Of a stretch of DNA of 64,000 nucleotides, positions 3,387 through 64,000 are shown in pieces. The first letter of the stretch is position 1, and each line of letters starts with the position of its first letter. This stretch comes from Eledone cirrhosa (Eukaryota). The stretch spans positions 178,250,001-178,314,000 of the forward strand of contig OZ024740.1 of NCBI GenBank assembly GCA_964016885.1, given 5' to 3'. The position numbers were made by a program, and so were the translations under genes. The notes below the pieces were generated by a model that had not been told where the DNA came from, searched no databases, and was given only the letters and a program-made list of their open reading frames with translations.

Positions 3387-5880
3387 TCCTAAGTATGACA
3401 TTAAACTGTATCCAGTGGCAAGGCTCCTGTTAGGGAGCTCAGGAGCTGTGGGAAATGTGAGGACTGTTCGGACGCTGGAGAAGAGAGAGCAGTTGGGTCA
3501 TCTGTTTGAGGAGAGTGGTATGCAGATACTTGCGATCCAAGAACACAGAATCCTACATGATGAGCCCGTGAAGAGAGTGATGATTGGAAGAGGAGCCAGC
3601 TCATCACCACATCAGCAGTGAGGAACACAACTAATGCTGCAGTAGGAGAAGTGGGTTTTGTGTTGAGTGCAAGAGCCAATCTATTAGCGAGGGTAATTAT
3701 ACCTGTCTCCCCACGAGTGTTGAGGGTGACCTTCAGTGGAAGCCCAAGGCTGACAGTCATCTCAGCCTATAGTCGAACCGAGGAGGACAGTGTTGGGAGG
3801 GTAGAGTAGTTCCATGAGGGAGTGTGTAGAGCTGTCAACACCACATCAGCTCATAACATCCTGCATGTTCTGGGTGACTTCAAGGCACATCTGAGTAGGG
3901 AGAGCAGTACCTTGCTGGTACTTCCATAACAACACCAACCGAAACTGAAGACTACTGAGGGACAGTCTGCTGGAGGCGAACTTGATGGCAACCAACTTAA
4001 GGTTTAGGAAGAATCCGGGGAAGATGTAGATCTACATCTTTGATATGCACCTGTCCAAGTCCCAGATTGATTTCATTCTGGTGAGGAAGAAGTGGCGGAA
4101 TAGTGTTCTGAACACAGAAATATACAACTATTTCAGTACACTCGGCAGTGACCATCAGCTTGTTATATGTGAGGTCTGGGTGAGCTTAAGAAAGCGTAAG
4201 GCTCAGCCCCAGAGAGAGATATATGACTAGGGAGCTTTTAAGGAAGATGATAAGCCACAGAACTACACAGAAGTGAAGAACAGGTTCAGTGCTCTATGTG
4301 GAGAGACAGAGGAGAGAGAGATTGGAGGGACTGAGGAGAGTGTGACGAGGAGGTACGGGTACTTCAGCTCTGCAGACCCCAAAGTGTGTGCAGCCAGAGA
4401 ACACTTGAAAGCTGCCAAGAACCTATTCTATGCTGATAATACGGAGGAGACGAATATGGAGGTGATGAGTGAAGAACTCTGTACCGCTAACACTGAGGCC
4501 AGAGAGGAGGCGCTGATAGAGAAGATCAGAAGTGTAGACAGAGCCGTTGACAGGTCTAGGTGTAAAGTGAGCTAGATGATCATCAACAAGATCACAGGGA
4601 GGAAGAAAGGGAGTTCGAGTCAGATCCAGGAACAGGGCCCGATGATAGGAAGAGGAAATAGCTGGACCATTTTAAGACCCTACTAGGAGAGCTGCCTTCC
4701 ATAGCCCAGAACACTGGGAAGATCAGACAGCTGTTTGAGGAACTGGATATTGAAACAGGACCCTTCGCCAGAATGGAGCTTCAGAGAGCCAAGAAGAAGA
4801 TTAAATAGAGCAAGGCCCATGAAGAAGATGGAGTGGCATCAGAGGTGATGAAGAGGTGTGATTTGATGATATCATCCTGGAGTTCTGTAACCAGGCACTG
4901 GAGCAAAGAGCCTTCTTGCTGTTATGGTTTTCATTAACTTTAGGAAGGCCTTTGATTCTGTGGATCATCACTGCCTGATGAAGATCTTACAAGTTTATGG
5001 AACCCCCAAGAAGATAGTGGACCTGATATCACTGCTCTGTACCTACACCAGAGCCTAAGTCATTACACCTGACGGGATGACAGAATTCTTTGAGATACTG
5101 ACTGGAGTGCTCCAGGGAGATACATTGGCTCTCTATATTTTATCATCGCAGTGGACTATTATATGCGCCTATTATATGAGAGTTAAGGCTAAAAAGATAT
5201 TAGATGCCGACATAGATCTGGTGACAAACACAATGAAGGAGGCAGAGGATGATGTGGGAGATGGAGACTGCGCAGATAAGTGTGGGGCTGAGAATGAATG
5301 AGAGTAAGACGAAGTATCTGGTAGAGAATATTAAGAAGCCATAGAAGATTAATAATGTAGGCAGGAAGCCGCTAGAAATGGTTGAGGACTTCCTGTATCT
5401 GGGTGCAAAGATTGGGAACACACAGGATGATGTGGTTGAGAGGAAGAGCAAAGCCTGGGCGGCGTGCCACAGTTTAAGATCGGTGTGGAAGTCGGACCTT
5501 CGTAAAGACCTGAAAATCCGTCTCTTCGTTGCTACAGTGGAGTTTGTGCTGCTGTACGAATCTGAGACTTAGACACTGATCAAGAGACTCGCTCAGATGT
5601 TGGATGGGTGCTACACGAGAATTCTGAGGATGGCTCTGAACATTAATCAGTATACACTGAGAATGAAGAACTCAGAGCTGTACGGGAGCCGCCCAAACGT
5701 CAGCTCGAAAGCAACAAAGAGGAGACTGAGGTTAGCTGGACATGCTCAACGACATTCAGAGTTGACACTGCACTCACTGGTTTTGTGGGAGCTCCTACAG
5801 GGACACACTAGAAGAGGGAGACCGAGGACTACATATATTGATGCCCTAAGGACAGACATTGGTCTCTGGGAGATGTATGG
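3384..5880 (+). mobile_element. RTE-clade LINE (family A), APE endonuclease + RT, pseudogenised
   Basis: Motifs ILAIQEHR, GDF, SQIDFILVRKKWRNSV, SDHQLV, FRKAFDSVDH, GVLQGDTLA, EDFLYLG, LDGCYTRILRMALNI, RLRLAGHAQRH, GRPRTTYID, with many stops and frameshifts. Confidence 0.92.
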
Positions 5881-8504: not shown

Positions 8505-8658
8505 TATATAAGTATGTACACGTACATACATATATGTATACCGACGTACAGTAGTATGTATATATATATATATACATACATGCACACATATATATATATA
8601 TATACATACTACTGTACGTCGGTATACATATATGTATGTACTTGTACATACTTATATT
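8505..8658. repeat. Fold-back palindrome within microsatellite
   Basis: ataagtatgtacacgtacatacatatatgtataccgacgtacagtagtatg and its reverse complement. Confidence 0.9.
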
Positions 8659-8729
8659 TAAGTAACAGCCGTACTAAGAGTGGGAAATGAAATATTGTTT
8701 CATTTTTTCCGTTTATATATATATATATT

Positions 8730-8758
<29 letters not shown>

Positions 8759-8763
<5 letters not shown>

Positions 8764-9443
8764 AATGAAAATAGAGAAATTAATGTGAGCAAGAAGCCAA
8801 CAGTAATTCATACATATAAGTGACTATTACGTCAAGATGGAAAATATTTAACGTAAGATATGGGAAAATAATTCAATCCCAATTCAAAAAAGTCAAGGCA
8901 GAAATTTTATCCAGAGATTTTGTGTAATCCAGGGGAAAAACCAATAGAGTCTTAACTCAGAATAAAATTAAGAGCAAATACTTATGCTTCAATTTGGAAA
9001 AATCTACAAATGCTCTATATAGTCTTAAAAAGACTATTTCACGAAACTTTTCAGTGGGGTTAGTCACGGTTGGAATCGTTCATCAGTAGAGCTCAATACG
9101 ATGACCAAACTCACTGCTAAAATATACCAGAAGGGAATTTAAAAGCAGGCTAGTTACACCTCGGGTGGAATTAAGATAATAAACACACACGGAGAACAGG
9201 GCTAGTGACGTCAGAATGAGACGAATGACTATTTACAAGAAACAGCAGTCAAAACATTCCGAAAAAACTCAACAAAAGATATGGAGTTCAGCATAAAGCA
9301 ATATTATCGCGTTTTTTTTTTGAAAAACCGGGATTAGTCACAAATAATTTTAAGCGCTCTAGTAAAAATTCCGAGTATGAATATAAATGAAAATAGAGAA
9401 ATTAATGTGAGCAAAAAGCCAACAGTAATTCATACATATAAGT

Positions 9444-9449
<6 letters not shown>
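8759..9449 (-). mobile_element. Retrozyme-like / PLE-derived element with 69-bp terminal direct repeats in (TA)n
   Basis: Direct repeats 8759-8827 and 9381-9449 (1 mismatch), internal hammerhead. Confidence 0.8.
9012..9092 (-). ncRNA. Type I hammerhead ribozyme
   Basis: GCUCUA-CUGAUGA-ACGA..UCGU-GAAA-UAGUCUU..AAGACUA-UA-UAGAGC. Confidence 0.9.
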
Positions 9450-9517
<68 letters not shown>

Positions 9518-9865: not shown

Positions 9866-10534
9866 TATAAAGAATTAATATATCTACCGACATATGTATA
9901 CAGATGCATACCTATGCTAGCAGATATATATGTGTTTTGTCTTAGTAACTACAGAAACTAATTAGTTGGAGTGAAATTTTAGTAAGTAAGTCAATTTTCA
10001 TAACTTTCTTATTTACGTCTTTCATATAATTGTTCTGCATTCCCCTACATAGATACACAAAGTTACTAAGACAAAACACATATATATCTGCTAGCATATG
10101 TATGCATCTGTATACATATGTCGGTAGATATATTAATTCTTTATAATTACCTCCAAATTATTTGTTGAGCAAAATTTGCCAAATTACTACTGTGACTGAT
10201 AGTAGTAGCTAGGCTCTGTCTTAATAGCACCCCCACTCCAAGCTGGTTAACCTCAGTGTCACGTGATTGATTCTTTTGAATTTGCCACTTGACCAATAAG
10301 GCAGTGAATTTTTCAATGGCTTGGAATCTCGCTTTTTTCCATCCACTGAATTATTTTTATATAAGTTCCCAGTGTCCCCGCATTGCCTGGAAACTTAGCT
10401 GAGAATAGACTCCCTGATGACGTAAGGCTTCTCTATAGTTATTACATAACTATATTTATCCCCTTACAGAAACTAATTAGTTGGAGTGAAATTTTAGTAA
10501 GTAAGTCAATTTTCATAACTTTCTTATTTACGTC

Positions 10535-10542
<8 letters not shown>
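9866..10542 (+). mobile_element. PLE pLTR / retrozyme-like element with inverted and direct repeats
   Basis: Inverted repeats 9866-9950 / 10061-10145, direct repeats 9950-10027 / 10465-10542, flanked by (TA)n. Confidence 0.8.
10409..10487 (+). ncRNA. Type I hammerhead ribozyme
   Basis: ACUCC-CUGAUGA-(C)GUAAGG..CCUUAC(A)-GAAA-CUAAUUAG-UU-GGAGU, palindromic stem III. Confidence 0.85.
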
Positions 10543-10601: not shown

Positions 10602-11118
10602 CTTGATCCCCTTGACCGACCAGTCCGTCGGCGGGTACCAATCGGCGCCGCTGGTCACAGCACGTCGTGCTGTTTTAGCCATAAGGTAATCCAGTAAAAT
10701 TCCCGAGATCCATGGACGAGTTCTCTCCAGCGGTCTCTGTCCCTCATTATCGCTGCCATGTCCTGCGTCTCCAACAGACCAGTGGGGCATCAACATACGT
10801 TAACCTTGGTCTTCCTCTTCCAGTGTGTCCATGTAGGGGCTCCCACAGGAGCACTGAGTGCAATGTCAATTCTGGATGTCGGTGAGCATGTCCGGCTAAC
10901 CTCAGTGTCCTCTGTGTCACTTTTGAGCTGACTTTTGAGCTGTAGTGGTGTCTGTGCTGCTGTACGGGTCTGAGACTTGGACACTGACCAAGAAACTCAC
11001 TCAGATGGTGGATGGGTGCTACAGGAGAATGCTGAGGATGGCTCTGAACATTAATCAGTATACACTGAGGATGAAAAACTCAGAGCTGTATGGGAGCCTC
11101 CCAAATGTCAGCTCAAAG

Positions 11119-16338: not shown

Positions 16339-16915
16339 ACCATACCGGACGGAGTCGCTGGAAGACCGCCGCTGCAAAGGCTACAAAATAAATTTCCAAA
16401 TACGGTCGCGAATTTTAATGAACTTGTTCACGTGACAGTCATAATTTCATTTATGACCAATCAAATTACATTTATAAAAAAAAGCCTTCGTGAGCCACTT
16501 TTTTTTAAAGTAAAAAGAAATTCAAACAAATTGGCGCGAAAGCTGATGTGCTTATTCACGTGACTGCATCAACCAACAAAACTTCACTCATATATGAAAA
16601 AACAACCTGAGCTCCCGCCCCCCTTTGTTTGAAGAACTCTGTAACGCGACCTGGCGCGAAATTTATTATACTTATTCACCAACCAATCCAATTACTTCTC
16701 TAAAAACTTGGCGTTTTGAGCCACTTTTTTCCATATAAAACAAGTAACATTCAAAGACCAACCAGATGTGAGAAAAACCACAGACGTTCCATCTCAACTG
16801 TACTTTTGAAAAGCAGAAGAACTGCGAAACGGTAAAGGAACCAAATAAATATATATATTTTTTTTAAAATAAGACTCTAGTTGCATTTTCGATTTCATCT
16901 TTTTTCCTGATATAC

Positions 16916-17196: not shown

Positions 17197-17200
<4 letters not shown>

Positions 17201-17950
17201 TATAATGTATGTCCATAGAGTCATTTGATAATATATATACACCATTTCCTCTCCCAATTAGCATAATCAACCGCACAAAAAATCAATTAAACCAGGCTAT
17301 AAGTTTAAAAGGCACCTATGAAGAAATAGTAGATAAATAAACGACAGGAATTTATTCGCGATCAACCGCTATAGAATATTTACCCAACATTTCAATAACA
17401 CGTGGAAATCGATTAAATATACCGTCAACCATACACAATTAGGTATAAAATTAAAGTTAGAAGAAAACATGCATATACACATACCAGGATTACGTTTCTA
17501 CCCTTAGGGTTTCGTTCGCTTTCGGAAATATCCTATCAAGGATAAAATCTCGAGCTTCGAACTCATCAGGAAACAAACTCATTTGGACAAAGAATTTTCT
17601 TAAGTGATCCCAGCCAGAAACGAATACAGCCAGAAAGAATATGATTGGTGGCTTACGACGAGTGGGCTGGTTGCTAGAAAGCGCAGCCCAATATTGCCCA
17701 AATTGCATCTCAACCTTATGGGAGATTATCAAATATAAAGATTTACATATACACAAACTAGACAAAGTCACAGATATATATGTTTTGGCAACCATTCACG
17801 ATGTGGCTCAATGATTAATTAATAAATAATCAGAGCAATATACTATAAAGTATGAGCAATATACTATAAAGTATGAGCAATATACTATAAAGTATGTCCA
17901 TAGAATCATTTGATAATATATATACACCATTTCCTCTCCCAATTAGCATA
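17197..17950 (-). mobile_element. Retrozyme-like / PLE-derived element with 69-bp terminal direct repeats in (TA)n
   Basis: Direct repeats 17197-17265 / 17882-17950, 21-bp unit x3 at 17833-17895, internal hammerhead. Confidence 0.8.
17494..17574 (-). ncRNA. Type I hammerhead ribozyme
   Basis: GUUUC-CUGAUGA-GUUCG..CGAAC-GAAA-CCCUAAGGG-UA-GAAAC. Confidence 0.92.
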
Positions 17951-17996: not shown

Positions 17997-18488
<492 letters not shown>

Positions 18489-22825: not shown

Positions 22826-22999
22826 ATATGTTGTATCTGTTATTCAAATGGCTAGCTGCAGAATTATGCTAACTAGCAGAAAAAACCGCCCTTCGAGCGG
22901 TTTTCTGCTAGCATATGTAGTGTGAATATTGGTATTATACGCAAATATATATGCATATAGATATATGTAAATTGAAATGTAAATTGATAATATCTTCTT

Positions 23000-23625
23000 C
23001 ACACACTTATTTCTGAGAGTATAGTGGGGGCAGAGTCCTTCTCAAACACTCCTTCCAGCGAGTCTGTCAGTAGCAAACATCTCTAACTGATCCAGCTGGA
23101 TCCCAAAGCGTGACCAGCCAAGCTCATGGATGTTATCCAACTATCTTGCTCAGGGTCTACCTCTGGGTCTCTTGCCGGTTGGTTTTGCCTGTAAAATGTG
23201 TCCAGCGATTCTTTACTGAGACATTCTAACCACATGCTCATAATATCGGAGTTGTGATCTCTCAATTCGGAGAAGTAGCGGCTCTACCAGAAGTGACTCT
23301 CTGGTCTCTGAGCTATGCACTTTATCGAGTAACGTTACTCCAAAGACCCTTCGGAGGAATCCCATTTCTGCCACTATTATTTGCAATTGTATTCTTTTGG
23401 TCATTATTCAAGATTCATGATCCTCGGTAAGAGTTGGCAGGAATACCAGGAAGACAGCGAGTTTGGCTTTTACACTTACCCGCCTTCATCTGATTGCTGA
23501 GCCTGGCGCATTACTGCATCAGCTTTTGCAATTCTTGCACTTAATTCAGCCTCCTGCATTCCATCACTCATGAACACGACTCCAAGATACTTGAACTACT
23601 CTAACTGCTTCAGTAGAACTCCCTT
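23000..23625 (-). mobile_element. RTE family B 3' fragment
   Basis: AEMGFLRRVFGVTLLDKVHSSETRESLLVEPLLLRIERSQLRYYEHVVRMSQ. Confidence 0.88.
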
Positions 23626-23834
23626 CACATTTATATACATTTGAGGGACTTCTGTCCACCCGTCCATCACGCAATGTTTATGTGTGTTTGTGTGAATGTA
23701 TGTGTGTGTAAAAGGAAGGAAAGGGATACACACATATATATGTCTAACTTAAAAACAGTGACACACACACGTGTCTCTAGTTTAAGAACGCCGACAAACT
23801 CATGCGCGCGCACATACTGTCCTATTACCACTTA

Positions 23835-24265: not shown

Positions 24266-24440
24266 AAAATTATTAGAGAGATTTCCCAGTGCTCCTCTCT
24301 ATATTTTTTGCTCTGGTAGTGACTCGTTCCCACTCTTTCGCCTGCATTTTGTTCTATGTGGACTAAGATGTGTGTATTACGTGCTTGTGTATTTTTTCTC
24401 TTTCTTTTTTCCTTTCCCTTTCCTTTGTATATATTATATT

Positions 24441-24822
24441 GAATTGGCAGTATCGGTAGAGGGTCGGACGCCATGCTTTCCAGCATAGTTACGTCCCTTT
24501 ACGGTCTGAGTTCAAATCCTGTCGAGGTTAACTTTACCTTTCATCCTGACGGGGTCGATAAAATAAAGTACCAGTAATGCACTGGGACCATTGCTGGCCT
24601 TGTGCCAAACGTAGAAACAATTATTAAAAGGGTGGTGGATTGGCAGTACCGGTAGAGGGTCGGATGCCATGATTTGCAGCATAGAGTTACGGCCCTTTAT
24701 GATCTGAGTTCAAATCCCACCGAGGTTAACTTTGCCTTTCATCCTTACGGCGTCGATAAAATAAAGTACCGGTAATACACTGAGATAATTGCTGGCCTTG
24801 TGCCAAATGTAGAAACAATTAT
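24441..24822 (+). mobile_element. Two head-to-tail SINE family 1 copies (24441-24625, 24631-24822)
   Basis: A box tggcagtatcggtagag, B box gagttcaaatcc, central gcctttcatccttacggggtcgataaaataaagtaccagt (Meta-domain-like), tail gtagaaacaattatt. Confidence 0.92.
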
Positions 24823-29037: not shown

Positions 29038-30979
29038 AGATAAAAATATACCACGAAGCAAATATGTATAATGATGGTATTCTTGCATTAAATGTTCGAA
29101 CTAACTTAATGATTATTTTCCATGCCGACAACGTTTTCAATTATTTATTTTCTTGTACTTATGCAGGAAATCTTGGTGTCGTATGATCTCAGGACAAAAG
29201 GAGACAAAACCAGAGATTAGTCTGGTAATCTATGATATTGCGCTGTTCCAGTACATAGCATATTATATACGATAAAATAAAAAAAAATAAATGTTTGAAA
29301 TATTTCTTATACAACTCAAAATCTACAGTTTATAGCCAGAACTATCATACATTTCTGAAATACGAACAATAAGGATTCATTCAAGTCTTGTCACATTAAT
29401 AAATTTGAGGGCTTCTGATTTTTTTTACTCTTGTTAACTAATTAAATTATGTTTTACTTTCTTTACCATTGAAGTTTTCAGTGTTTTCAAGTTTGGTGTT
29501 AAGAGTTGTTTACTTCCTTTGATATTTCAATAGCAGTTTTACTTTTTCATCGTAAACAACTCTTGCTGAAGCTTCAACATATGGTTATGATTTTATTTGA
29601 TATCTTAGAAATATTTCGTTATTAATATTAATATTATTATTTTCACTAGTAATCATATTTTTATTGCGTGCGTTTGCTTTCACCGAACAATCAAATGTAG
29701 CTCTGTGAACCTTCGGTATATGCAGTGTTTTCATATGGTTTCTCTATTTTCTCTATGATGTGTATGTGTCAGATTCCTCGAGGTTTAGCTATGTATTTGT
29801 CTGAAGTTTTTAATCATTTCCAAGGCATATTATTATAATGATTGTCTGTCATTTAAATACTTGCATCCTGGTTTTCCTCAGTAGATATCTTTATAGTTTT
29901 ATGGTTTCTTGACCACCTTTAGAAATATATTGTTTATAGGGGCTGAAGCTTCATAAAAAAGTACTTTAATTCTCCAGGGCGTATTGTCAATAATATCCGG
30001 TCGACTATCTCGAAATTACTTTCTGCCTTGAGTAGAAAATCTCAGAGGATGATGGCTCTCTAAAGCATGTTGGCTGTCTAATTTTATACCAGCTATTTTG
30101 TGTCAGTGTTTTATGATACTGCCATAATTCTAGCGTATGTAAACCGCAAATCTGAATGTCTCTAGGTGTATTCTCCTTTCACCGACACTGAGACAATGTG
30201 TTTAATTCTTTCTTCCCAACATCCACATATTCTTCATATGAACTTTACATCCCTGTATTCGTGGTACATACAATATTTCTATATTAGATTTTGGCGGTGT
30301 ATTCTAAATGCAGCCACCGATGTTCCTTCTTTTAGCTCTTCACCTGTTAATGTTTAGCGTCTTGTTGAGAATATTATGACCGTAACTTATTGCACGGATA
30401 ACTATTACCTTATTCTTCGCAGTTGATTCTGCATTGAATATTATTCTAATGCTTCTATAATATCATTTTCCTAACCCCTCCTTCCATTTGTGTGTATGTG
30501 AGCGTGTGTGTGTGTTGTATTCTGTCTAATTCATTACTGCTATGGTATTCTAGCAAATCTGTACAGCGTTTTTATTTTTGTGTTGGACTTAATTCTCTCA
30601 TAAGGCACTATAATCTCCACAACACTATACCAATGATTTTGAAATTAAACGATGCAGAGAACATAACAAGCATGAGATGGGAGCACTAGCATATCCGAAG
30701 TACACAAACTCTACCCCAATGAAATACTCCACAGCATTTCAATACCATATCAAACATTCCAAATCATCTCCTATTGATCAACCTCAAAGCAGACTCGTCC
30801 CCAGACAAACGAAGAAAAGATCGGTTGTCAACAACATAACGTGGGCAGTCATACATTAGGCCATGTCTTCAACTCTGTCACCAATCGCCTATCAAATCTG
30901 GCTACCAACTAGACCAACAACAACGTAATTAACCTTAAAGCAGAACCATCCGTTTAATAGAACAGAAGTCCTCAAAAAT

Positions 30980-31167
30980 GATTGTTTCAAATTTTGACAC
31001 AAGGCCAGCAATTACCCAGTACATTACTGGTACTTTATTTTATCGACCCCGTAAGGATGAAAGGCAAAGTTAACCTCGACGGGATTTGAACTCAGACCGT
31101 AAAGGGACGTAACTATGCTAGAAAGCATGGCGTGCAACCCTCTACCGATACTGCCAATTCACCCGCC
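30980..31167 (-). mobile_element. SINE family 1
   Basis: Full-length match to other copies. Confidence 0.9.
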
Positions 31168-33160: not shown

Positions 33161-33203
<43 letters not shown>

Positions 33204-33230
33204 GTGGTTACACAACAGTTAGTTCACAAA

Positions 33231-33270
33231 CCGAGAACAATTGTTTCACCTTCGCGGATCTTCAGCTCGG
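33231..33270 (-). ncRNA. Minimal type I hammerhead in PLE pLTR (second copy 35535-35574 has U4C)
   Basis: CCGAG-CUGAAGA-(U)CC GCGAA GG(U)-GAAA-CAAUUG-UU-CUCGG. Confidence 0.8.
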
Positions 33271-34374
33271 GATGTGTATGGTTATAGGAACAGGAAGGAC
33301 AACCGTACGAACGCGCATGCGCAGAAACTCGGTCACTTCACACAGACAATACTAGACTGCGTGCGGGAGGTGTAGGGGAGATAACTGCGAAAGTCCGGAA
33401 AGTTTTTAGGTTGAAAATAAAATTGAAAAAAAATGAAAAATAAAAATAAAATTGCAAAGAATCAGTCCGGAGCCCTGTAGTTATCCAATAGATGTTTGGT
33501 GACGTGTGGACAACGTGTGAAAAATTCACTTCTCGTGTTTAGGCAATCACAATTGCGTAATCTCTTTAGGATAGTTATTCGTTCGTCAATACATAAGCCA
33601 CACGTCGGATTTCCCCTTGCGCATGGCTTGGACTTAGAGATGGCTTTCCATTGAATGGAGTAGCCTATACTTGAGTCCTTGAGGGACCATATGTGGCTCG
33701 CGAGTTTCGTGGATGAACGTCTGTCCGGGTATCTGAAGGTAGACTGGTGGTTCAGGTAACGCTCTTTGAAGTTAAATATCAAAACTGCTGTTGTTGTTGA
33801 ATTTAGCCTAACGTCAGTCATAATTTGACAGGCATGTGATTGCAGGCATTCCAGCCATGCCTATCGCAGTTTCTTCTTATATACTGGGAACCCAGGATAA
33901 TATCAACCCATGCATTTTTCTAAGGCTTTTGGTGTAATTTGATGAAGATTTGACCGATATTTCTAGTAGATCACACAAATATGCAGATATTCACACAGAC
34001 ATCAACGGGGATTGAACGTAAAAGACACACGATAACAGTATTTTTTTCATTCTCATGTTATATTTACGCTCGCCAGCAGATTTGCACAACAGGGAGTATT
34101 TATTTATATGTAACCGTGTATATGTGCGCGTTTGTACATGGACGGCTGTGTGTATGTACAGATGTGTGTGTGTGTTTAAATTTCTTTTATTTTCATAACA
34201 AAAGATTAAGTTAATTCTCATTTATCATAATATTTCAAAATCTTTGTTAATGTCAAAACCTCAAACACCTCTCTGACTTTTACGCCGTATGTTAATTTAT
34301 TATACAGTTCAGAATTAAATTGGATTATAGAGTCTCATTCACTTCATTGTCATTAATTTGATTCTCAATATATG

Positions 34375-34556: not shown

Positions 34557-34990
34557 CTTCTTCTTCTTCTTCTTCTTCTTCTTCTTCTTCTTCTTCTTCT
34601 TCTTCTTCTTCTTCTTCGCCCACTTATACCTGAGATGGTCGTGGGGGCAGAGACCTCAAACACCCCTTCCAGCGGGTCCTGCCAGAAGCAACCGTCTCCA
34701 ACTGATCTTGTTGTGTTGGATGCCCAAGTGAGACCAGCCAAGCTCATGGGTGCTATCCAAACATCGTGGTTGGCGTCTACCCCAGTGTCCCCTGCCGGTT
34801 GGTTTTTTCCCGTAAAATATGTCCATCGATTCTTGAGACATTCTAAGGACATGCCCATAGTATTGGAGCTGTGATGACTCAATTCGCAGAAGTAGCGGCT
34901 CTACTTGGAGTGACTCTTTGATCTCCGAGCTATGCACTCTGTCGAGTAACGTTACTCCAAAGACCCTTCGGAGGAACCCCATTTCGGCCG
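34557..34990 (-). mobile_element. RTE family B 3' end with (GAA)n tail
   Basis: MGFLRRVFGVTLLDRVHSSEIKESLQVEPLLLRIESSQLQYYGHVLRMSQE, (TTC)n at 34557-34617. Confidence 0.88.
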
Positions 34991-35381
34991 CTTGCCCTAT
35001 TCTCCGAAGAAATGTTTAAGAGACAGGATATGACTGATGTGGTTTTATTCCAACAAGTTAGTATTTTACCTAATGTGCAAATTTATATCTGTTAAAACTC
35101 TCTAATTAACTTAGTTCTGGTGGGGCTCAGTAATATACTGTTGGGTCTGTTTGTGAAGTCAGCCGTGTAGTCCTTCAGTGTGATGAAGACTTCACCAATT
35201 GCTAGGGGGTCCACTCACGTTGTGATAGATGTAGCTTCGTCATTTATATTATAGATGTCTACTTTGGCTTTCTGGCTCTTATTAGTGATGTTATGCAGGA
35301 TTATTGGATTATAAGTAGCTTTATCGAATTTAAACAGGAACTTCGTCTTATCACACAAAACGAGAACGTTATTAGAAGATG

Positions 35382-35439
<58 letters not shown>

Positions 35440-37119
35440 GGTGGAACACTGGAAGGTAATATCCGTATTGGTAGAGCACTCAGTCCAAGGGACGAGTTAG
35501 GTAGAAGTGGTTACACAACAGTTAGTTCACCATACCGAGAACAACTGTTTCACCTTAGCGGATCTTCGGCTCGGGATGTGTATGGTTATAGGAACAGGAA
35601 GGACAACCGTACGAACGCGCATGCGCAGAAACTCGGTCACTTCACACTGGCAATACTAGACTGCGTGCGGGAGATGTAAAACTATATAGGCTTAGCGTTA
35701 TTCAATATTCCTATGCTTCTTAAACGTTTGGATTCAAATTGCATTGCCCTATGTACTGTACATGCACTTTTTTGATGAGTTGTGGTGCACCTGGGCACTG
35801 TACACAATACTTTCATTATTATTATTATTAAATCTATTCGGAATTGACATAAGTATCGTTGAAAATAAAGTATCGTTGATTATATAAAGGGCAGCAAAGG
35901 ATGCGGCCTCAAAATTGCGTAAAAAAGAATGATCCTGAAAGATGCGCTGAAGCCAAATTCAAATTGTTCGGTAAATGTAATATAAGGGTAAATTCATATT
36001 ATGTAATTGGGGTGCTCTGCAAATGTAAACAGACAAATAAGTACATATTACGTGAATGAACACAATCAATGTAAACGAGACATTTTATTCATATAGAGAA
36101 TTTTTCAGAATTTTTAAATATATGCTTCCTTTCTATTCCGTCGTTTTTTTCCTTTCCTCTCTTTATTTTCATTTTTGTTTTTCAAAATAATTTTGTCCTT
36201 TTTATCGGATTGGTAATTTCCTATGAAAATGAACCATATGAAATCGTCGTCAGATCACAGAAAGTTAATTTGTTCAATTTCCAAGGGATATACGCTATTA
36301 GTTTTTATGCCAGTTGCACACATGTGCCGATACACGATAAACATGAGAAAAAAAGAAACATCACAGTCTTTAGAATTAAAGGAATTACAGGGAACTTCTT
36401 AGTTTAATCAAGTTCTACCTCTTAAACTAGGCTGTAAATACTTTAAAATATCAGCCTACAACTAGTTATTAATGTTCATGCTGTTTAAGAATTTTGAAAC
36501 TAGTAAGAATGGATTGATAGGATTTATATAATTGTGATAGTATCTATCTGTGCGTGTGGGTGGGGGAGTGTATACATATATATGACGATGAATGCCAAAA
36601 CTGGTAGAGCAGAGACAATAACTCTTTCATGTTTCATCAGGTATCTCGGAGTTGAGTTCAAATGATATCCAATACTTACTTTAAAAGAGACACTACATCT
36701 GAAGGTGTCATCTCAAAATAATTGACACATATAATGGTCGTAGCAGTCCGACGTTATCTGAAAGTGGGGTACATGGTGTATATTTTATTTAGGTCACAGA
36801 AGTTGCTGGGATCTCAAAAACTGTTTGCATATATTGAATAATAGCTTTAACACTTTGATGGGGTTCCTAAAGGAGTTTTGTACATTCTGATAAAAGTCTC
36901 TCACAGAGAAAGTCCTGAACGCTCTATTCAATTACATATGTACGTAGTGGAGTATTGTGATTGACCAGGTATTGGTTTATGACGAACATTTTCATACGTA
37001 TAATAAATAATGCTATGGCATACCATAAGCCCTTAATTCATGATGGTATCATAGGAACGCCGTGGTGATATACAGAGTGTTTTAGGTATTCCGAAATTCC
37101 TCATTTTCTTTATCTTTTT

Positions 37120-44051: not shown

Positions 44052-44112
44052 GTGAAGTTTTGTTTACAAAATGAAAAATAACCGAGGTGTCCTACACGAG
44101 TGAAAGTATAAA

Positions 44113-44736
44113 GAAAAAAAGATGAAATCGAAAATGTAACTGGAGTCTTATTTAAAAAAATATATATATATTTATTTGGTTCCTTTACCGGTTTCGCAGT
44201 TCTTCTGCTTTTCAAAAGTACAGTTGAGATGGAGGGTCTGTGGTTTTTCTCACATCTGGTTGGTCTTTGAATGTTACTTGTTTTATATGAAAAAAGTGGC
44301 TCGAAACGCCAGGTTTTTAGAGAAGTAATTTGATTGGTTGGCAATAAGTATAATACATTTCACGCCAGTTCGCGTTACAAAGTTCTTCAAACACAGAGAG
44401 GGGGCTCAGGTTGTTTTTTCACTCATATATGAAAAAAATAACCTGAGACCCCCCCCCCCTTGTTTGAAGAACTTTGTAACGCGAACTGGCGCGAAATGTA
44501 TTATACTTATTGACCAACCAATCAAATTACTTCTCTAAAAACCTGGCGTTTCGAGCCACTTTTTTCTATATAAAACAAGTAACATTCAAAGACCAACCAG
44601 ATGTGAGAAAACCACAGACCCTCCATCTCAACTCTACTTTTGAAAAGCAGAAGAACTGCGAAACCGGTAAAGGAACCAAATAAATATATATATATTTTTA
44701 AAAATAAGACTTTAGTTGCATTTTCGATTTCATCTT

Positions 44737-44742
<6 letters not shown>
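44113..44742. mobile_element. About 630-bp palindrome (arms about 310 bp), each arm with a U3:A8 minimal hammerhead motif
   Basis: Arms meet at ttcactcatatatgaa. Motifs at 44183-44218 (minus) and 44637-44672 (plus). Confidence 0.9.
44637..44672 (+). ncRNA. Minimal hammerhead-like motif, U3:A8 variant
   Basis: CUU-UUGAAAA-GCAG AAGAA CUGC-GAAA-CCGG-UA-AAG. Confidence 0.6.
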
Positions 44743-46764: not shown

Positions 46765-46990
46765 ATATATTATTTCATATTATATACCTGAGATATTTCT
46801 GTTGCTATACAGAGATTCGCGGATTTCTTTCTGAATATGAACTGAGAATGATTTTTATATGAAAAGTATATATAGCGATGGCATATATACTGTTCATGTA
46901 AAAATCATTTCCAGTGTTCTGATCAGCGGCACTCCGCAACACTCAGAGTAGCAACAGAGAGTAATCTCAGTAATATAATGAATATATAAT
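46765..46990. repeat. Imperfect fold-back element (MITE-like)
   Basis: ctgagat..tctgttgcta pairs with tagcaacaga..atctcag, and aatgatttttatatgaa..agtatatat pairs with atatatact..ttcatgtaaaaatcatt. Confidence 0.75.
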
Positions 46991-47174
46991 TGTTTCTACT
47001 TTTGGCACAAGGCCAGCAATTACCCAATACATTACTGGTACTTTATTTTATCGACCCCGTAAGGATGAAAGGCAAAGTTAACCTCGGCGGGATTTGTACT
47101 CAGATCGTAAAGGGAGGTAACCCTATGCTTCAAAGCATGGCGTCCGACCCTCTACCGATACTGTCAATCCACCA
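46988..47174 (-). mobile_element. SINE family 1 with apparent target-site duplication
   Basis: Full-length copy flanked by tatataatgaatat(a/g)taat on both sides. Confidence 0.9.
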
Positions 47175-51229: not shown

Positions 51230-51850
51230 TACATGGGAATGTATTTCAACTGAAGCAGGTAGAGAAGTTCAAGTATCTAGGGGCCGCGTTCACGAGTGTT
51301 GGAAGGCAGGAGGCTGAATTAAGTGCGAGAATTGCAGGAGCTGGTGAAATAATGCGCCAGCTTCAGCATTCGGTCATAGGATAAGGGGAGTTAGATGTAA
51401 CAACCAAACTCGCTATCTTTAATTCGGCATTCGTGCCGATCCCTACCTATGGTCATGAATCCTGGGTAATGACTGCGAAAATACAATCACGAATACGGCC
51501 GGCCGATATGAGGTGCTTGCAAAGGTCTCTGAAGTAAAGTTACACGATAGAATTTGTGCATAGCTCAGAGCGTCGTTGGGGGTAGAGCCGCTACTTCTCC
51601 GAATTGAGAGTCCACAAATCCGATATTACGGATAAGTGGGAAAATGTCTCAGGAAAGAATCACTGGACAGATTTTACGAGTAAAACCAACCGGCAGTAGA
51701 TACACCCCGAGCAAGATGGTTTGTCCATGAGCTTCACTGGCCTAACTTGGGAATACTACCAGATCAATTAGAGACGGCATCCATGCCTCGCTGAAAGGCG
51801 TACTTACAGACCCTGCCCCTACGAACCTCCCAGGAATATGTGAGCGAAGA
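51230..51850 (+). mobile_element. RTE family B 3' fragment
   Basis: LKQVEKFKYLGAAFT..EAELSARI..PIPTYGHESWVMT..VEPLLLRIE. Confidence 0.85.
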
Positions 51851-55005: not shown

Positions 55006-55429
55006 AATTAGAATTGGCGCTCTGAAATAGCTATATATATATATGAATGTATATATAGTGTATTTTGCAATACACTATATGCTTAATTAAAAGCATTTCG
55101 AAGACCTTATGCTATTGTTTTAGAGTAGTGACAGTCTCATTTACTTTAAACTTTTAGCAAACAGGGGAGATAAAGCTGACAGAGCTATGTTTCGTACTGA
55201 TTGATACTTATCAAAGCCAAGTACTCCACCTGCTTGCTGTAAATCATGAATGTTTGATTCTTATAGAATTTCTAGTAATAATCAGGAACTGATTATACAG
55301 AGCGGTTGCCGGTCAAGCAGAAATTGAAAATTAGAATTGGCGCTCTGAAATAGCTATATATATATGAATGTATATATAGTGTATTTTGCAATACACTGTA
55401 TGCTCAATTAAAAGCATTTCGAAGACCTT
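55006..55429 (-). mobile_element. Retrozyme-like element with about 100-bp terminal direct repeats
   Basis: Direct repeats 55006-55108 / 55329-55429, internal hammerhead. Confidence 0.8.
55156..55238 (-). ncRNA. Type I hammerhead, U3:A8 variant with extended stem I
   Basis: GCU-UUGAUAA-GUAU..GUAC-GAAA-CAUAGCUCUG-UC-AGC (55175-55217), outer helix AGCAAGCAGG.GGAG / CUCC.CCUGUUUGCU. Confidence 0.7.
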
Positions 55430-58400
55430 TTTTGTTGGCAGACACTGATCTTGTGCTGATATAATCAGTCCTTCAGTCTCCGATTTCAGTTCAGAGGATG
55501 CCAACCACTAATGGGTTAAAGTTTTGTCAACATCAGGATTGTTAGCTCGTTCTGGGTATTTTCCATACAGAGGCTTTTTTTGCCATTTCTTAGCCAGTTT
55601 CTGTAGTAGTTCTTTCTTTGCAGTTACTTTTACCTGCTTTGCTTTTTCTGTGTTTTCCATTTCAGCAGTAAATGGGACTTCTGAAATTTGTAGTCCATTA
55701 CTGTATCTTTGTGCATCTTTTGTAATGGAGTATGATCTTTTGATGCTTTCGTGTTTCAAAACGAGTTTGATCATCCAATCATGTGATTCCCTTAGATATG
55801 TAGATAATCCAATTGTTGCAGTTTTCAACGCAATGTCTAACTGGATTAACCCACGTCCTCCTTCTTTCCTAGGGAGATATATTCTATCTGTATCTGCCGT
55901 AGGGTGATGCATTCTGTGCATGGTTAAGAATCTTCTAATTTTTGTATCGAGCATACGGATCTCTGTGCTTGACCAGTTGATGACCAGTTGTAACTGTAGG
56001 TTACTACTGGTATGGCAAGCGTGTTTATGGCATCGATCCTATTCCTTGCATTCAATTCCGTTCTTAAGATTGCTCTTACTCTGCGGTAACATTCCTTCCT
56101 TATCCTTTCCCTCATTGTCGAGTGCTTGATTCCGTCTCCTTCACAAACACCTAGATATTTGTAAGTTTCCTCTTGATCAAGTTCTCCTATCACATTCCCC
56201 CGATCAAGATTAATGTCTGAACTTTTCAGCAGCTTTCCTCTGATGAACGTTGCTTTGGCGCATTTATCTAGTCCAAACTCCATTTTAATGTCATCACTGA
56301 ACTGCTTCACACTGGATAATAGCCGTTACAATTGTTCATCATTTTTTGCAAATAGTTTCAGATCAACCATGTAGAACAAGTGATTAATAGTTTTGTCATA
56401 GACTTTATATCCAGGTTTTGTTTCATTGAGCATTTTACTTAATGGTATAAGTGCGATGCAGAATAAAAGCGGTGATAAAGAGTCACCCTGAAAAATTCCA
56501 CAATTAATATTAACTTCTCCAGCTTCCAGTGATTTTGTTTCACTATTCAAAAGAAGTGTCGTTTTCCATGTCTTCATACTGAATGACAAAAACGTCCTGA
56601 CAACGGGAGATATTTTGAAAATCTCTAAACATTTTTCGATCCAAGTGTGGCAAACTATCGAATGCTTTTTTATAATCTATCCAAGCAATCGATAGATTTT
56701 TGTGTCTATTATGACAATCTTCCAGTATCATTTTATTAACCAAAAGCTGATCCTTACAGCCATATGAGCCTTGTTTACATCCTTTCTGCTCAATGGGAAA
56801 TAGGTAATTTGTTATCAGTTGGTCATATGTATATTCAGTTAGGACTGATGTTAAAATGTTATACATTGTGATCAAGCAAGTTATCGGTCTGTAATTTTTG
56901 GGATTGTTTGTCTCATCATTCTTCGGAAGCAGGAATGTAATGCCGTTAACTAGCCATGATGGTATCTTTTCTGGCTCCTTAACTATTTCATTGTAAAGTT
57001 AGGCTAACAGCTCATGAGACTCTGTGAAGGCATTTATCCAAAAATTTGTTATTTTGTCTTTTCCTGGGGATTTCCATTTGCTGGTTTTTTTAAGAGCCAA
57101 ACGCAACTGTTCAACTGTTATATTTTCCCATATTTGTTCCTCAAGGTGAGCTGTATCTTTCATTTGTCTGTCTATCCATGGGGCATGTATATTATGAACT
57201 TTTTCTTCGGCCCAGATCTTTTCCCAGAATTCTTGCACTTCCTCCTTGGGTGGTATTGATTTAGCAGTTATTGTTGACTTACCAATCTTTCTGTAGAATT
57301 TTCTTTGGTTGTTTTTGAACATATTGTTCTTATAGAATCTAGATCGTTTTTCAAAGCGCCTTATACGAGCAGCTTTGGCCGACACTTTTTGCTTGATTAT
57401 TTCTATCAGCATGTCTATGTCACTTGTTGATTTTATACAGTACTTTCTTTTCAATTTTCTAAGTTTAGTTTGTTTAACATGTTCACCTACTTTATAGTTT
57501 GTTAAAATTTCTATGTCAGATCGGAAAAGGTTTATTTGGCGATTGATGTTCTCTTGCCAAGTAGATTTCTTGTGGGAATTCCTTTGTTTTTTTCATTTTC
57601 ACTCCACATAAGTGAGTGGTGACTTTAGCCGATGCATAATAGAGATGATTTAAATCAGTAATGTTTAGTTTGTTTGTGATGATAATGTTTTTGAGAATTA
57701 TGTTAATCTTGTGTATTATCTTTTGGTTCTGTTTGGAGTTCTGGATCTTAGGGTGGGTGTCTCGTTCCCCCATGTCAGATTCTTTCATTTTCATCCATTC
57801 GATCATAATTTCATCCTTCAAGTTGGCAAGTTCATTCTCATTCATTTCTTTATCTTTTACGATCTCATTGTTTTCATTTGGAGTTTCATCTTGAGCATGC
57901 ACTCCCTCCACTTTTTCGATCCTTTCTTTAATTTGTTCTGTTGACAGTGATTCCGCCCCAACCCTGGGATTCGAAGTGTTACAATTTACCTCGTTTTCAC
58001 TGACACATGTTTCATTTTCCCTTCGCTGACTTTGTGTTAATAGCTTGATCAATTTATATATCAGTTAGTAACTTTTTTTTAACAATATTTCTTCGTATAT
58101 TGGCTTGTTTGTTACTGTCAATATAGCCTCTGTTTTCGGGATGTCTCTTTTTCCAGTTGATATATGTCTGTTCTGTATTCGATGTATTTGATGGGTAGTA
58201 CATGGCAGTGTAGAAAGCCACAAGGACTTCTTTATTATCTTCCCTTGACCATTTTTCTCTCTTTTTCTTCTTTTTCTTTGGATTTCTTGGTGGTGAGCAG
58301 GGGGGGGGGGGGGCAAACAGTAGGAGTATTTCGGTTATGGGAGGTCTCCAGCTCTGAAGTGATGGGAAGGTTTGAACCATTAGCTGATTTTTCGACCCCA

Positions 58401-58640
58401 GTCTGGTTCCTCTCTGAGGGACGCAGCCCTTTTTGACCCGGATGACGGCCGATCCGGTATGAGATTTTATCATTTGATATTTACTTTATTTTGTCGCGTT
58501 TTATCCTTATCCGCCAAGGGGTAATCATTTCGTGGTACCACTTCTAGGACGAGTGTCAACGAAGACTAGAGGGGTCGTCCTCCCCTAGAGACACGGCTAT
58601 TCCACGCCGGCCGCTATCCCGGTATTTCTTGGTCACGGGG
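55430..58640 (-). mobile_element. R4/Dong-clade non-LTR retrotransposon, frameshifted, 3' end (RLE domain) missing
   Basis: KWSREDNKEVL, WKSPGKDKITNFW, NYRPITCL, EQKGC..GCKDQLL, AWIDYKKAFDS, GIFQGDSLSPLLF, HLFYMVDLKLFA, MEFGLDKCA, YKYLG, DRIYLPRKEGGRGL. Confidence 0.92.
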
Positions 58641-59227: not shown

Positions 59228-59411
59228 TGGCAGTATCGGTAGAGGGTCGGACGCCATGCTTTCCAGCATAGTTACGTCTCTTTACGATCTGAGTTCAAAT
59301 CCCGCCGAGGTTGACTTTGCCTTTCATCCTTACGGGGTCGATAAAATAAAGTACCAGTAATGCACTGTGTAATTGCTGGCCTTGTGCCTAAAGTAGAAAC
59401 AATTATTATTA
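59228..59411 (+). mobile_element. SINE family 1, near-consensus copy
   Basis: tggcagtatcggtagag..gagttcaaatcccgccgaggttgactttgcctttcatccttacggggtcgataaaataaagtaccagt..(att)n. Confidence 0.93.
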
Positions 59412-60410: not shown

Positions 60411-62475
60411 ACAACAACATCAGCAACAGCGGCGGCGCCGGTCGTAGTACCAGCAGCAATAACAAAAGTAACATCAGCTCTGACGACAATAACAACAAGA
60501 AAGAAAAACCAATCTCGTTTGCAGGTATCGCAAAGAACCTGGAAACCATCCTTATAACAAATGAGGAATTTCAGGAAGCAAGGAAGATGGTGGCGAAAAC
60601 CGGACACCAAACAATCTGCAAGGCAGCCGAAGAATTTTTTGAAACCCAACAGCACTGTACGGTCACGTACCGTACAGTAAACACAAAATCACGTAGGGTT
60701 GAAAAAGTCTCAGAGGCTCAAATACAAAAAGCCTTAGGGTATGTGTGGCAACGGAAAACGCATGTCACCCGAGGTAAGAAATATGCCACCGTGGACGTGT
60801 GTTTTGCCACACCCCAGGCTGCAAAGTTCAATCCTTAGGGTCGCTAAGGAGCGAGGAAATGGTGTTGGTGCCCTCCTACTGCGGGCAAAAAATTGTGAGG
60901 GTCAAACTGACCCAGGTCCCCTCTCCCGGATGGCCCCTTCTTGGCTGGCGGCGTCTGTCCTCGTCGGAATCGAGGACAAAACAACCGTACTGCAAGTACA
61001 GAAAAAAGTAAGAGAAGATTGGGTCGGCGCCTCCATTGAGATGTTAATCCAAACCAACCAGGAGTGCATCAAAGCCATCCCGGATGTGATAGACTTCGAT
61101 AACGGCACTCAACTTCCCATAAGTGTTGAGGGCAAACGCCCGAAATGCTTTCGCTGTGGGTCGAAGACTCACCTCAGGGCCTCCTGCAATGAGAAGACCC
61201 TGAGAAAGGAGACCCCCCCTTCGGAAACCGGCCCCACTGCTTCCAGCAACAGGACAGGCGGCAAGCAGGAAGGATAGGTTCGTGGCACCCATACCCACGT
61301 CACCGAAATCAAGAACAGCAGCAGCAGTGGAAGTATTAACAACAACAAGAGTAATACCAACTGCAGCTGCAACAGAGACTCCACTGCACCAACACGAACA
61401 AGTGACAGAGTGGAGCTGGTACCCCTCCCCGACCTCACAGTATCGGACATGGAGTGTGAGGTGGGAGAGGGATGGCAAAAACTCGCAAGAAGGCACAAAC
61501 GCAGAAGCAGCGCATCGTCGCCTTCGAAAAGGGAGGGAAGAAATGAAAAAAGGGCGGAGGCTCCTGCAAAGAGTCTTACAGCAGCAACACCACCAACACC
61601 ATCACCACCCACTCTAGCACTATCATCACTACCGGCGGCAACCCCATCGCCAACAACAACAACACCTTCAACAACACCACCACAAGCACCAACATCGCAA
61701 ACACAACAACAAAACACACACACCCAGAAACAATATAGGCACGGAAGTTCCGTCAGCCGAGCCTGTCCGAGATGCGCGCAGAGCGACGAAACTGTCGTGT
61801 ACGCACTCGTTCAGTGCCCGAGCATTGCTGACTTGTGGAGCTATGTCGAACAGTTGCTGTCGCGTGTGGGACTGATCCGGTTATTGACTGGGTCCATTGT
61901 GCAGATGGTCTCGCCGTTTTCCTTCAAGGAGGAAGGGCAGGCGGTTTTCATCTGCCTGGTGGCCATGGCGAAAGAGATTGTGTGATGGACAACGTTGAAA
62001 GGGTTAAAGACAGATACTTTCCTCTTCGGCGAATCCCTAATTAACTTTTTCAAGTTTCACTTGAAGAGGAAAATCAGGGTGGAGAGGCAAGTGCTGCCTT
62101 CTAGCAAGTTTGTTGAAAGGTGGGTGAATGTTGCGAGAATGGTCCGAGTGAACGGGACCGCTCTGAATATACGCCTGTAGTTTAAGAAATGGAAAAATTG
62201 AGAGAGGGCGCTTTCCTTGGTGGTCAGGTTGGCCGTGGTCTTTTGTGTGGTTTTCGCCAAGAGCAAACCTCGGAGTTTTCCCCCCGATTGGAGAATATAT
62301 CATTGTTTCAATTTTCATTTTTATTGTTTATATATATGTGTCTATGTGTTTATTTCTTTTATTATATAAATAATAAAAATCTTTACACGGACAAAACCCA
62401 CATCGTATCGTCCTGTACCGTCCTGTACTGTCTGTAATGTTTTTCTTGATAGCCCTTGTGGCCAATAAAGAAATC

Positions 62476-62557: not shown

Positions 62558-62567
<10 letters not shown>

Positions 62568-63093
62568 AAGGTTTAGCAAATAAGGAAAAAGTTTCAAAAT
62601 AAATTTTAAAAAATTAACATTACCTACTATAGTTACCTTTACCGAATCGGTTTCGAATCTCAAAAATAAACGAATCTCAAAAATAAACGGAGTCCATACG
62701 GCCTTTTGTTGCAAAGAAAGATTCTCGTCAGAAGGTTCTTTACATTCGAAGAATATAAAATTCTCGAACTTAAATTACAAACTGGCGCTATTCGAAATTG
62801 TTCCCGAGATGAGAGTAAATGAAGTGGAATCAATTTTTTCAAGGGCCGAGTGCAAAGATAGAAGCAGAGGCAGGCAGGTCAGTCTGCTACCGCTATAACT
62901 AGCAACAGTCAGAACGACCAAATTTTTTTCTCAACATAGAGGAGTATAGTAATAATAGAATATGTGTTCCTACACGCACAATGCGCTAAGGGACACATGT
63001 ATTGTCCAACCAAATGCCAATGTGGTTCAATGGCAGGTTAATAAATTAACGAGCCAGAACATATATAAACAAGGTTTAGCAAATAAGGAAAAA
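62558..63093 (-). mobile_element. Retrozyme-like element with 33-bp terminal direct repeats in (TA)n
   Basis: atatataaacaaggtttagcaaataaggaaaaa at 62558-62590 and 63061-63093, internal hammerhead. Confidence 0.8.
62635..62736 (-). ncRNA. Type I hammerhead ribozyme
   Basis: ACCUU-CUGACGA-GAAUCU..AGAUUC-GAAA-CCGAUUCGG-UA-AAGGU. Confidence 0.92.
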
Positions 63094-63138
63094 ATGTCAA
63101 TATATATATATATGTGTGTGTGTGTGTATGTATATATG

Positions 63139-63377: not shown

Positions 63378-63867
63378 GTATTTATATATATATACGCAGC
63401 CGAGAGATCGGACTTTGAAGCGCCGCAAATATAACATTAATGTAAATATACCATCGGCCGCTGTCAACTTCTTTTTCCGTCTTTTACGGGTCTTTACCCT
63501 ATTTTATAAACCATTTTATCACATTTCTGCGCATGAGTACATCATTCTTTACATTAAAAATAGAAACAAAATATTGAGAAGCTTATTGCATTACCGCTCA
63601 CAATCAAAACAGTATTTCATTGCTTATTAATTAACACAAATATTATTTACCTCAAATATTTTATGAGAACATTCAAAGACTACTGTTTATTCAACAACTA
63701 GGTCGTGTTCTGCAGATAACTTGTTGGTATAATTAATGCCATTCAGAGTAAAGTAAAACTCAGCTGCAAAACGAATTTCTCGAACTTTAGAAGCGCATCA
63801 CATGTTATACATTTGATAGCAGTTGACAAGCTGAAAATTTACAATAGCAAGAATGCGTGCATTAATA

Positions 63868-64000
63868 ATTGTTTCTACTTTTGGCACAAGGCCAGCAATT
63901 TCCCAGTGTATTACTGGTACTTTATTTTATCGACCCCGTAAGGATGAAAGGCAAAGTTAACCTCGGCGGGATTTGAACTCAGAATGGCAAGGGCCGTAAC
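63868..64000 (-). mobile_element. SINE family 1, cut by window end
   Basis: aattgtttctacttttggcacaaggccagc...gggatttgaactc. Confidence 0.9.

Follow-up and report, generated by a model that had tools for sequence, protein, structure and literature searches.

The window, a 64,000-nt stretch of the 3.0 Gb genome of Eledone cirrhosa, contains five elements with terminal direct repeats, which we named A (8762), B (9950), C (17199), D (55006) and E (62558) and whose features are listed in Table 1. The genome is rich in TA, CA and trinucleotide tracts, and a general repeat search of the window was dominated by microsatellites; the direct repeats were mapped by masked self-BLAST. Units are numbered from the RNA 3' side, that is in the order of the expected cDNA synthesis. 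An earlier sequence-only reading of the window had listed terminal repeats at the same five places, and all of them proved real, with periods of 622, 515, 685, 323 and 503 nt. Its list omitted the inverted arm of B, however, and the period of 685 nt is peculiar to the window copy of C, from which about 34 nt are deleted and in which one 21-mer occurs three times. The window copy of A begins at the fixed copying start of its family (8762) and ends at a copy-specific 5' stop near 9446. The units span 323 to about 680 nt and have a G+C content of 33-36%. There is no stop-free frame of 120 codons in A to D, and E is overlapped only by one of low complexity. A tblastn comparison of the units with 121 Penelope-type proteins gave no credible match, nor did the five show any credible homology to each other. 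Judged by these comparisons, A to E are five mutually unrelated non-coding families, each inserted in (TA)n.

Table 1. Elements, repeats, ribozyme motifs and Penelope-type fragments located in the window
Feature	Position	Strand	Remarks
Family A element	8762..9446	-	1.1 units of a 622-nt non-coding unit; RNA 3' end at 8762
A direct repeat, first copy	8759..8824		unit 1-63 plus flanking TA; masked self-BLAST
A direct repeat, second copy	9381..9446		end of lap one plus start of lap two; masked self-BLAST; pair of 66 nt, 98.5%, period 622 (69 nt with flanking TA counted)
(TA)n target tract, RNA 3' junction of A	8714..8763		
(TA)n tract, RNA 5' junction of A	9447..9516		
A type I hammerhead	9012..9092	-	core at 9086; predicted cut 9018/9017
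Family B main arm	9950..10538	+	515-nt unit plus 74 nt, from site 1 (10538)
B repeat pair	9950-10023/10465-10538		74 nt, 100%, period 515
Family B inverted arm	9866..9950	-	85 nt, from site 2 (unit position 394)
B type I hammerhead	10409..10487	+	palindromic stem III; predicted cut 10482/10483
Family C element	17199..17950	-	1.1 units; hammerhead 17493-17575, predicted cut 17499/17498
C repeat pair	17199-17262/17884-17947		64 nt, 97%, period 685
Family D element	55006..55429	-	323-nt unit plus 103 nt; hammerhead 55174-55218, predicted cut 55178/55177
D repeat pair	55006-55108/55329-55429		103 nt, 86%, period 323
Family E element	62558..63107	-	503-nt unit plus 47 nt; hammerhead 62635-62736, predicted cut 62640/62639
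E repeat	62558		shorter; 47 aligned nt, period 503
P1 copy, 5'-truncated	33199..33770	-	endonuclease C-terminus; minimal hammerhead 33231-33270; site 1 3' end against (TA)n
Second short P1 fragment	35436..35678	-	3' end at site 2 (66 nt further) against (TA)n

Type I hammerhead motifs are present in all five window elements. Those of A, C and E were recovered by a strict type I scan and that of D only when a U3-A8 core was allowed, a variant known from Penelope elements of Schistosoma (PMC4209133). The B motif, which has a mismatch at the base of stem II, was missed by the scans and recognised by eye; it is conserved over 44 copies. One further match in the window, at 4331, had a stem III of 2 bp, and ten block-shuffled windows gave a single match in total. 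A search with Rfam gave 130 matches at E<=1, most of them by far microRNA models on simple repeats and none a hammerhead. The cut that the sequence-only reading had predicted in A was placed at the same position by the type I scan, and the ribozyme does lie outside the repeats as that reading had stated. In 121 copies of A the core is 91-99% invariant except at N7, and stem I shows double changes, from U-A to A-U in 15 copies and from A-U to G-C in six. The invariant core and the double changes together indicate that the fold has been kept between source lineages. Circular folding of the units in the ribozyme sense was better than that of 12 shuffles (z -2.7 to -6.5), but this is a weak signal since B, D and E folded better than shuffles in antisense too; folds of single ribozymes were significant for A only. 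Additional hammerhead motifs were seen in flanking sequence, outside A to E (near 618 in L334, 1048 in L336 and 4923 in L346, in element orientation), which suggests further families.

The window also contains fragments of a multicopy autonomous element, P1, which was traced from an open frame at 33462-33860. At locus L131 it has a unit of 2.58 kb with a frame of 722 codons, in which the motifs RWR, DKT and CSCPKPEAC (a CxCX5C linker) are found, and a minimal hammerhead in the pseudo-LTR. By inspection of motifs against the features given in the accessible part of PMC8557442 (under 3 kb, C-terminal GIY-YIG, hammerhead, (TA)n), P1 fits the Hydra clade of Penelope-like elements; Pfam gave no supporting match for this assignment. 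Relatives of P1 encode proteins of 650-750 aa, one of them with a GIY-YIG domain, and frames of 713-758 codons are open in further Hydra-type families. The 3' end of P1 falls at either of two sites separated by 66 nt, each adjoining (TA)n, and in four of five resolved inversions the two arms lie on different ends. The contigs that carry most of the Hydra-type relatives (P0001-P0120) measure 2.2-3.6 kb, roughly the length of an element unit, which would be expected if repeats had collapsed or units were circular. TA tracts beside autonomous elements hold diverged tandem copies that resemble D and B (75-80%; L131:1077-1480, L094:2307-3308 and L306:3-1173); these families therefore have older subfamilies.

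Other repeats are frequent in the window. A 325-bp family adjoining (TA)n forms a head-to-head palindrome at 44112-44740 and a single arm at 16583-16908, in which hammerhead scans found none. Inverted pairs of 60-190 bp, several of which adjoin (TA)n, are present at 3000-3078/3241-3319, 14972-15139/15768-15956, 18006-18074/18311-18379 and 28304-28363/28965-29024. Two dispersed families, which we take to be SINE-like, have members of about 190 bp (18066-18254, 24440-24822, 30977-31163, 46986-47172, 59228-59408 and 63861-64000) and of up to 650 bp (241-642, 22997-23633, 34616-35002 and 51230-51849). Decayed retrotransposon frames occupy 55508-58485 (-) and 60738-61985 (+), with an RVT_1 match (E 1e-5) below the cut-off and a weak zf-RVT match. 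Related fragments at 5536-5846 and 10785-11117, in a partly inverted arrangement, share a frame that presumably resembles a LINE C-terminus. A near-perfect hairpin at 8522-8641, around TA/CA repeats, gave microRNA-model scores below the cut-off.

The genomic copies of family A have a fixed start and a scattered stop. Two 18-mers from A had 310 and 585 exact matches in the genome compared with 0 and 1 for controls. Loci were taken as all C1 matches of each 18-mer, so that copies were not selected by their ends. Among 153 arms at 145 distinct loci, 122 start at position 1 and 133 at positions 1-6; of the 58 loci found with the mid-unit 18-mer, 51 begin within unit 1-8 and one begins upstream. 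The ends on the opposite side are scattered, with a median length of 436 nt in 88 copies (91 minus the duplicate L089 and minus L059 and L171, which start upstream). These lengths are compatible with an exponential distribution (KS p=0.11); the stop rate climbs beyond about 500 nt, which counts against the copying mechanism proposed below. Up to one unit is present in 66 copies and more than one in 22, nine of all 88 measuring 1.0-1.2 units and six carrying two ribozymes. Head-to-tail laps reach about 3.2 units in A and about 3.5 in D. The sequence-only reading had taken a length slightly above one unit for the design of these elements, with redundancy at variable positions relative to the hammerhead, and had looked to a circular permutation of start points among genomic copies. 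No such permutation was seen in A, each family has one or two fixed start sites so that the phase varies only between families, and most copies of A are shorter than one unit. Because the start is fixed and the stops are scattered, the 66-69-bp repeat of A marks the place where the window copy stopped and is not a design; and since the repeat length differs from copy to copy, there is no fixed LTR. The window copy, with one ribozyme, would be a dead end. A candidate autonomous parent of A at C2:187.9 Mb, where matches lie about 3.8 kb apart, was rejected, as a host segment occurs there three times, together with a truncated A copy and no RT frame. Element A is very probably one of several hundred dispersed copies of a small protein-free hammerhead retroelement.

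The starts of A adjoin (TA)n and fall on short TA-like tracts within the unit, 256 nt downstream of the predicted cut; in the other families this distance is 56-300 nt. The outer junction reads TATATG in 21 of 122 A copies compared with 0 of 52 internal junctions among those listed, as if target sequence overwrote a mismatch. A 12-nt realignment duplication at the priming site, found in 7 of 122 copies (L002, L021, L069, L074, L113, L125 and L150), is reminiscent of telomerase repeat addition. Initiation inside the RNA, downstream of the ribozyme, has likewise been described for Poseidon of Anolis, but there the start is without homology to the target (PMC11167929, accessible part), whereas the start tracts of A to E are TA-like.

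Families B to E use two start sites: unit position 1 or 394 in B, 1-2 or 27 in D, 1 or 395-399 in E and 1-3 or 535-543 in C. Their loci are the 30 best matches each to an inner segment and not unbiased samples. Inverted arms are present in B (16 of 29 loci), D, E and C, and in the resolved loci the two head-to-head arms lie on different sites in 15 of 16 cases in B, 10 of 11 in D, 4 of 4 in E and 2 of 2 in C. The D count is weakened by the fact that site 2 of D is an internal TA run. Solo copies of B use site 1 in 12 of 13 cases. When B to E and P1 are pooled, the arms are on different sites in 35 of 38 loci (p=3e-8); five further inverted loci of D, two of E, one of C and three of P1, whose outer ends are truncated, complex or cut off, were left out. 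The two arms of E share a haplotype (54 sites agree and 2 differ, compared with 20.7 expected). Family A, with its single start site, has no head-to-head arm in 145 loci. P1 is regarded as a likely helper of A to E because of the shared ends, inversions and (TA)n target only: comparison of A to E with 20 P1 loci and 50 further Hydra-type loci, a sample of the genome's families, found no homology, the matches being neighbouring insertions, and the best tblastn match to the sampled autonomous families had an E value of 0.003 over 33 aa. Mobilisation of A to E by a Hydra-type enzyme is likely from the shared behaviour.

These observations are probably explained by a trans-acting Hydra-type Penelope RT/endonuclease that copies a closed unit-length monomer and makes a different number of laps from one insertion to the next. 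Rare loci with two ribozymes would release the monomer by self-cleavage, and its ends would be ligated or held together by stem I of the ribozyme. The enzyme would nick (TA)n, and at a distance of 56-300 nt downstream of the cut the nicked target would anneal to a short AU tract and prime inside the RNA; between part of a lap and about three laps of the closed monomer would then be copied. The junction would be crossed freely on lap one, while a minority of templates would expose a free 5' end on later laps. Where a family has two start sites, the second would be primed by the other end of the target, which would give rise to the inverted arm.

If a single monomer is copied more than once, the laps of one insertion should carry the same haplotype. 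Comparison of 53 adjacent lap pairs at 49 A loci gave a divergence of 4.6% between laps within a locus compared with 9.7% between loci. Of the comparisons made at 66 diagnostic sites, 982 were concordant and 67 discordant, where 396 discordant ones are expected at random; the corresponding numbers for E are 115, 12 and 46, and B, C and D follow the same trend with few sites each. Rare variants common to both A laps numbered 26 compared with 0.9 expected, and 133 were unshared (L029 left out). The own lap partner was the nearest sequence in 15 of 37 pairs and within the best tenth in 27. No lap-specific allele was found at the 66 diagnostic sites; a candidate at unit 52 was an artefact of gap placement. 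The concordance fits a monomer bottleneck, which could be mimicked by gene conversion, local duplication after insertion or a homogenised master array. A single-monomer template is favoured.

The predicted scission site is crossed differently on the first and on later laps. On lap one of A only 2 stops fall in unit 236-276 where 6.6 are expected, just 2 indels open near the site in 134 copies, and linkage across the site (r2 0.152) is no weaker than beside it (0.130 on one side). On later laps 8 of 23 stops fall in unit 226-260 compared with 3 of 64 on lap one (p=0.0008, for a window picked post hoc). In B, D and E together, 16 later-lap stops fall between 30 nt before and 4 nt after the site where 8.3 are expected (p=0.011), B being the only family significant alone; family C was left out of this test. 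Stops are thus enriched about twofold just before the second crossing, mostly 5-30 nt short of the site, and 13 of 20 A copies continue past it. The excess argues against a purely ligated circle. The sequence-only reading is supported in part, namely in the copying of an apparently single unit-length template more than once, which the lap haplotypes bear out. We read the second-crossing stops as a mixture of ligated monomers and nicked monomers closed by stem I; the main alternative is a linear RNA cut only at the upstream ribozyme. Contigs from three sequencing runs of unknown kind on one sample contained variants of the families, and no joints or ends; the data sets listed as containing B included no RNA.

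In the broader form of this alternative the same enzyme would copy linear read-through RNA from multi-unit source loci, either uncut or cut only upstream, and no circle would be formed. We consider it unlikely. In its favour are the excess of stops shortly ahead of the second crossing and the occurrence of loci with 2-3.5 units; moreover, Poseidon initiates internally on unprocessed linear RNA in vitro (PMC11167929, accessible part), where the ribozyme was dispensable, a result that also counts against a closed monomer. However, random partial cutting predicts stops at the first crossing, where A has no excess, and a source of several units should have left lap-specific alleles. Furthermore daughter copies could never exceed the length of their source, and there is no long array among the matches listed (the first 100 for each 18-mer, in C1 and part of C2).

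Rather improbable is a linear RNA on which the RT switches templates homologously between repeats of the same or a sibling molecule, with the ribozyme as a passenger or in some other role. Realignment of the RT does occur at the start site of A, switching would likewise yield one haplotype per locus, and Naiads make tandems without canonical hammerheads (PMC8557442, accessible part), which counts against the closed-monomer explanation as well. Against this stand the compensatory changes that hold the A ribozyme fold, the presence of a ribozyme in five unrelated families and in P1, and the enrichment of stops at the ribozyme site in several families.

It is very improbable that the units represent solo pseudo-LTRs, or the 3' ends of complete Penelope elements. 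Their ends, inversions and target are those of P1, and, according to the accessible part of a preprint (10.64898/2026.07.22.740005), known elements are matched by 24 of the 57 retrozyme families of Xenopus, for the most part at Penelope termini. In the A loci displayed, however, the unit end joins a unit start or a simple-repeat flank and there is no shared coding continuation; DNA homology to the sampled autonomous families is absent, and an origin from an unsampled family is possible. The choice posed earlier between a retrozyme and a partial-tandem Penelope element is a false one, since A to E combine Penelope-type ends, inversions and targets with the absence of coding sequence. Target-site or local tandem duplication is refuted as a general explanation of the repeats. 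Local expansion may have taken place at some multi-unit loci, whose units are nearly alike (about 1% divergence in L029), but the repeated segment is dispersed family sequence, present at unrelated loci in varied lengths (the 18-mer with 585 matches, compared with one for its control, is from the window repeat's end of the A unit).

A to E resemble several known systems. With metazoan non-LTR retrozymes, for which Penelope-like mobilisation from circular RNA has been proposed (PMC7229834; 10.64898/2026.07.22.740005), they share non-coding head-to-tail units of low G+C content, each with a type I hammerhead. Unlike these, as far as the accessible parts of the two sources go, A to E are dispersed, mostly shorter than one unit and targeted to (TA)n, with fixed starts, inverted arms and no pseudo-LTR homology found; they lack long arrays among the matches listed and are known from genomic copies only. 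Hydra-clade Penelope elements share (TA)n, a hammerhead, partial tandems, 5' truncation, inverted arms and two 3' ends (PMC8557442). They differ in that A to E have no open reading frame and no detectable homology to the sampled autonomous families, and in that A has one site and no head-to-head arms. Poseidon of Anolis likewise has two tail-defining start sites past the hammerhead cut, and both target strands are extended (PMC11167929), but in vitro there was no difference between the strands, whereas here the two arms nearly always use different sites. Elements of Chlamys such as MRC1, once mistaken for LTR elements, are also non-autonomous, with a pseudo-LTR and multi-copy head-to-tail insertions, but they share 3' sequence with autonomous families, and most Chlamys elements are described without canonical hammerheads (PMC8557442). 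Plant LTR retrozymes are ribozyme retroelements with terminal direct repeats and have circular RNA (PMC7229834; 10.64898/2026.07.22.740005), but their ribozyme is of type III inside fixed LTRs with 4-bp target duplications, whereas ours is of type I, lies outside the repeat in A and accompanies repeats of variable length.

The element class and the circle model are already in print. A circle copied for more than one unit was proposed, without a test, in PMC4209133, circles of metazoan retrozymes were reported in PMC7229834, the 2026 preprint 10.64898/2026.07.22.740005 linked animal retrozymes to Penelope pseudo-LTRs, and a tail on one of the inverted repeats was described in PMC3846280 and PMC8557442. 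In the openly accessible main texts and listings searched, we found no work that draws on the haplotypes of laps, on the positions of stops or on start sites specific to an arm; such families could already be listed in the Hydra consensus and ribozyme files that accompany PMC8557442 or in the preprint's tables.

The origin of the partial tandems, inverted arms and tails of Penelope elements, and the role of the ribozyme, are stated to be open in the accessible parts of PMC8557442 and PMC11167929. It is possible, and we propose it tentatively, that Penelope-type retrotransposition is a two-ended target priming on one closed RNA monomer, in which either end of the cut (TA)n would prime at a site of its own on one RNA that has been cut by the ribozyme and then ligated or closed by stem I. 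If this is true, the pseudo-LTR would be an extra lap, the same mechanism would account for the inverted arm, for the tail on one side only and for the stops before the second crossing, and family A would be a one-site variant that has lost the inversions. The predictions are two priming sites chosen by target end, a clean first crossing and a stop at the second, and the Hydra-type proteins with open frames in this genome make them testable. Element A of the window, taken singly, is an ordinary copy. The value lies in the copy population, as short non-coding families with hundreds of copies provide a readable record of the Penelope reaction.
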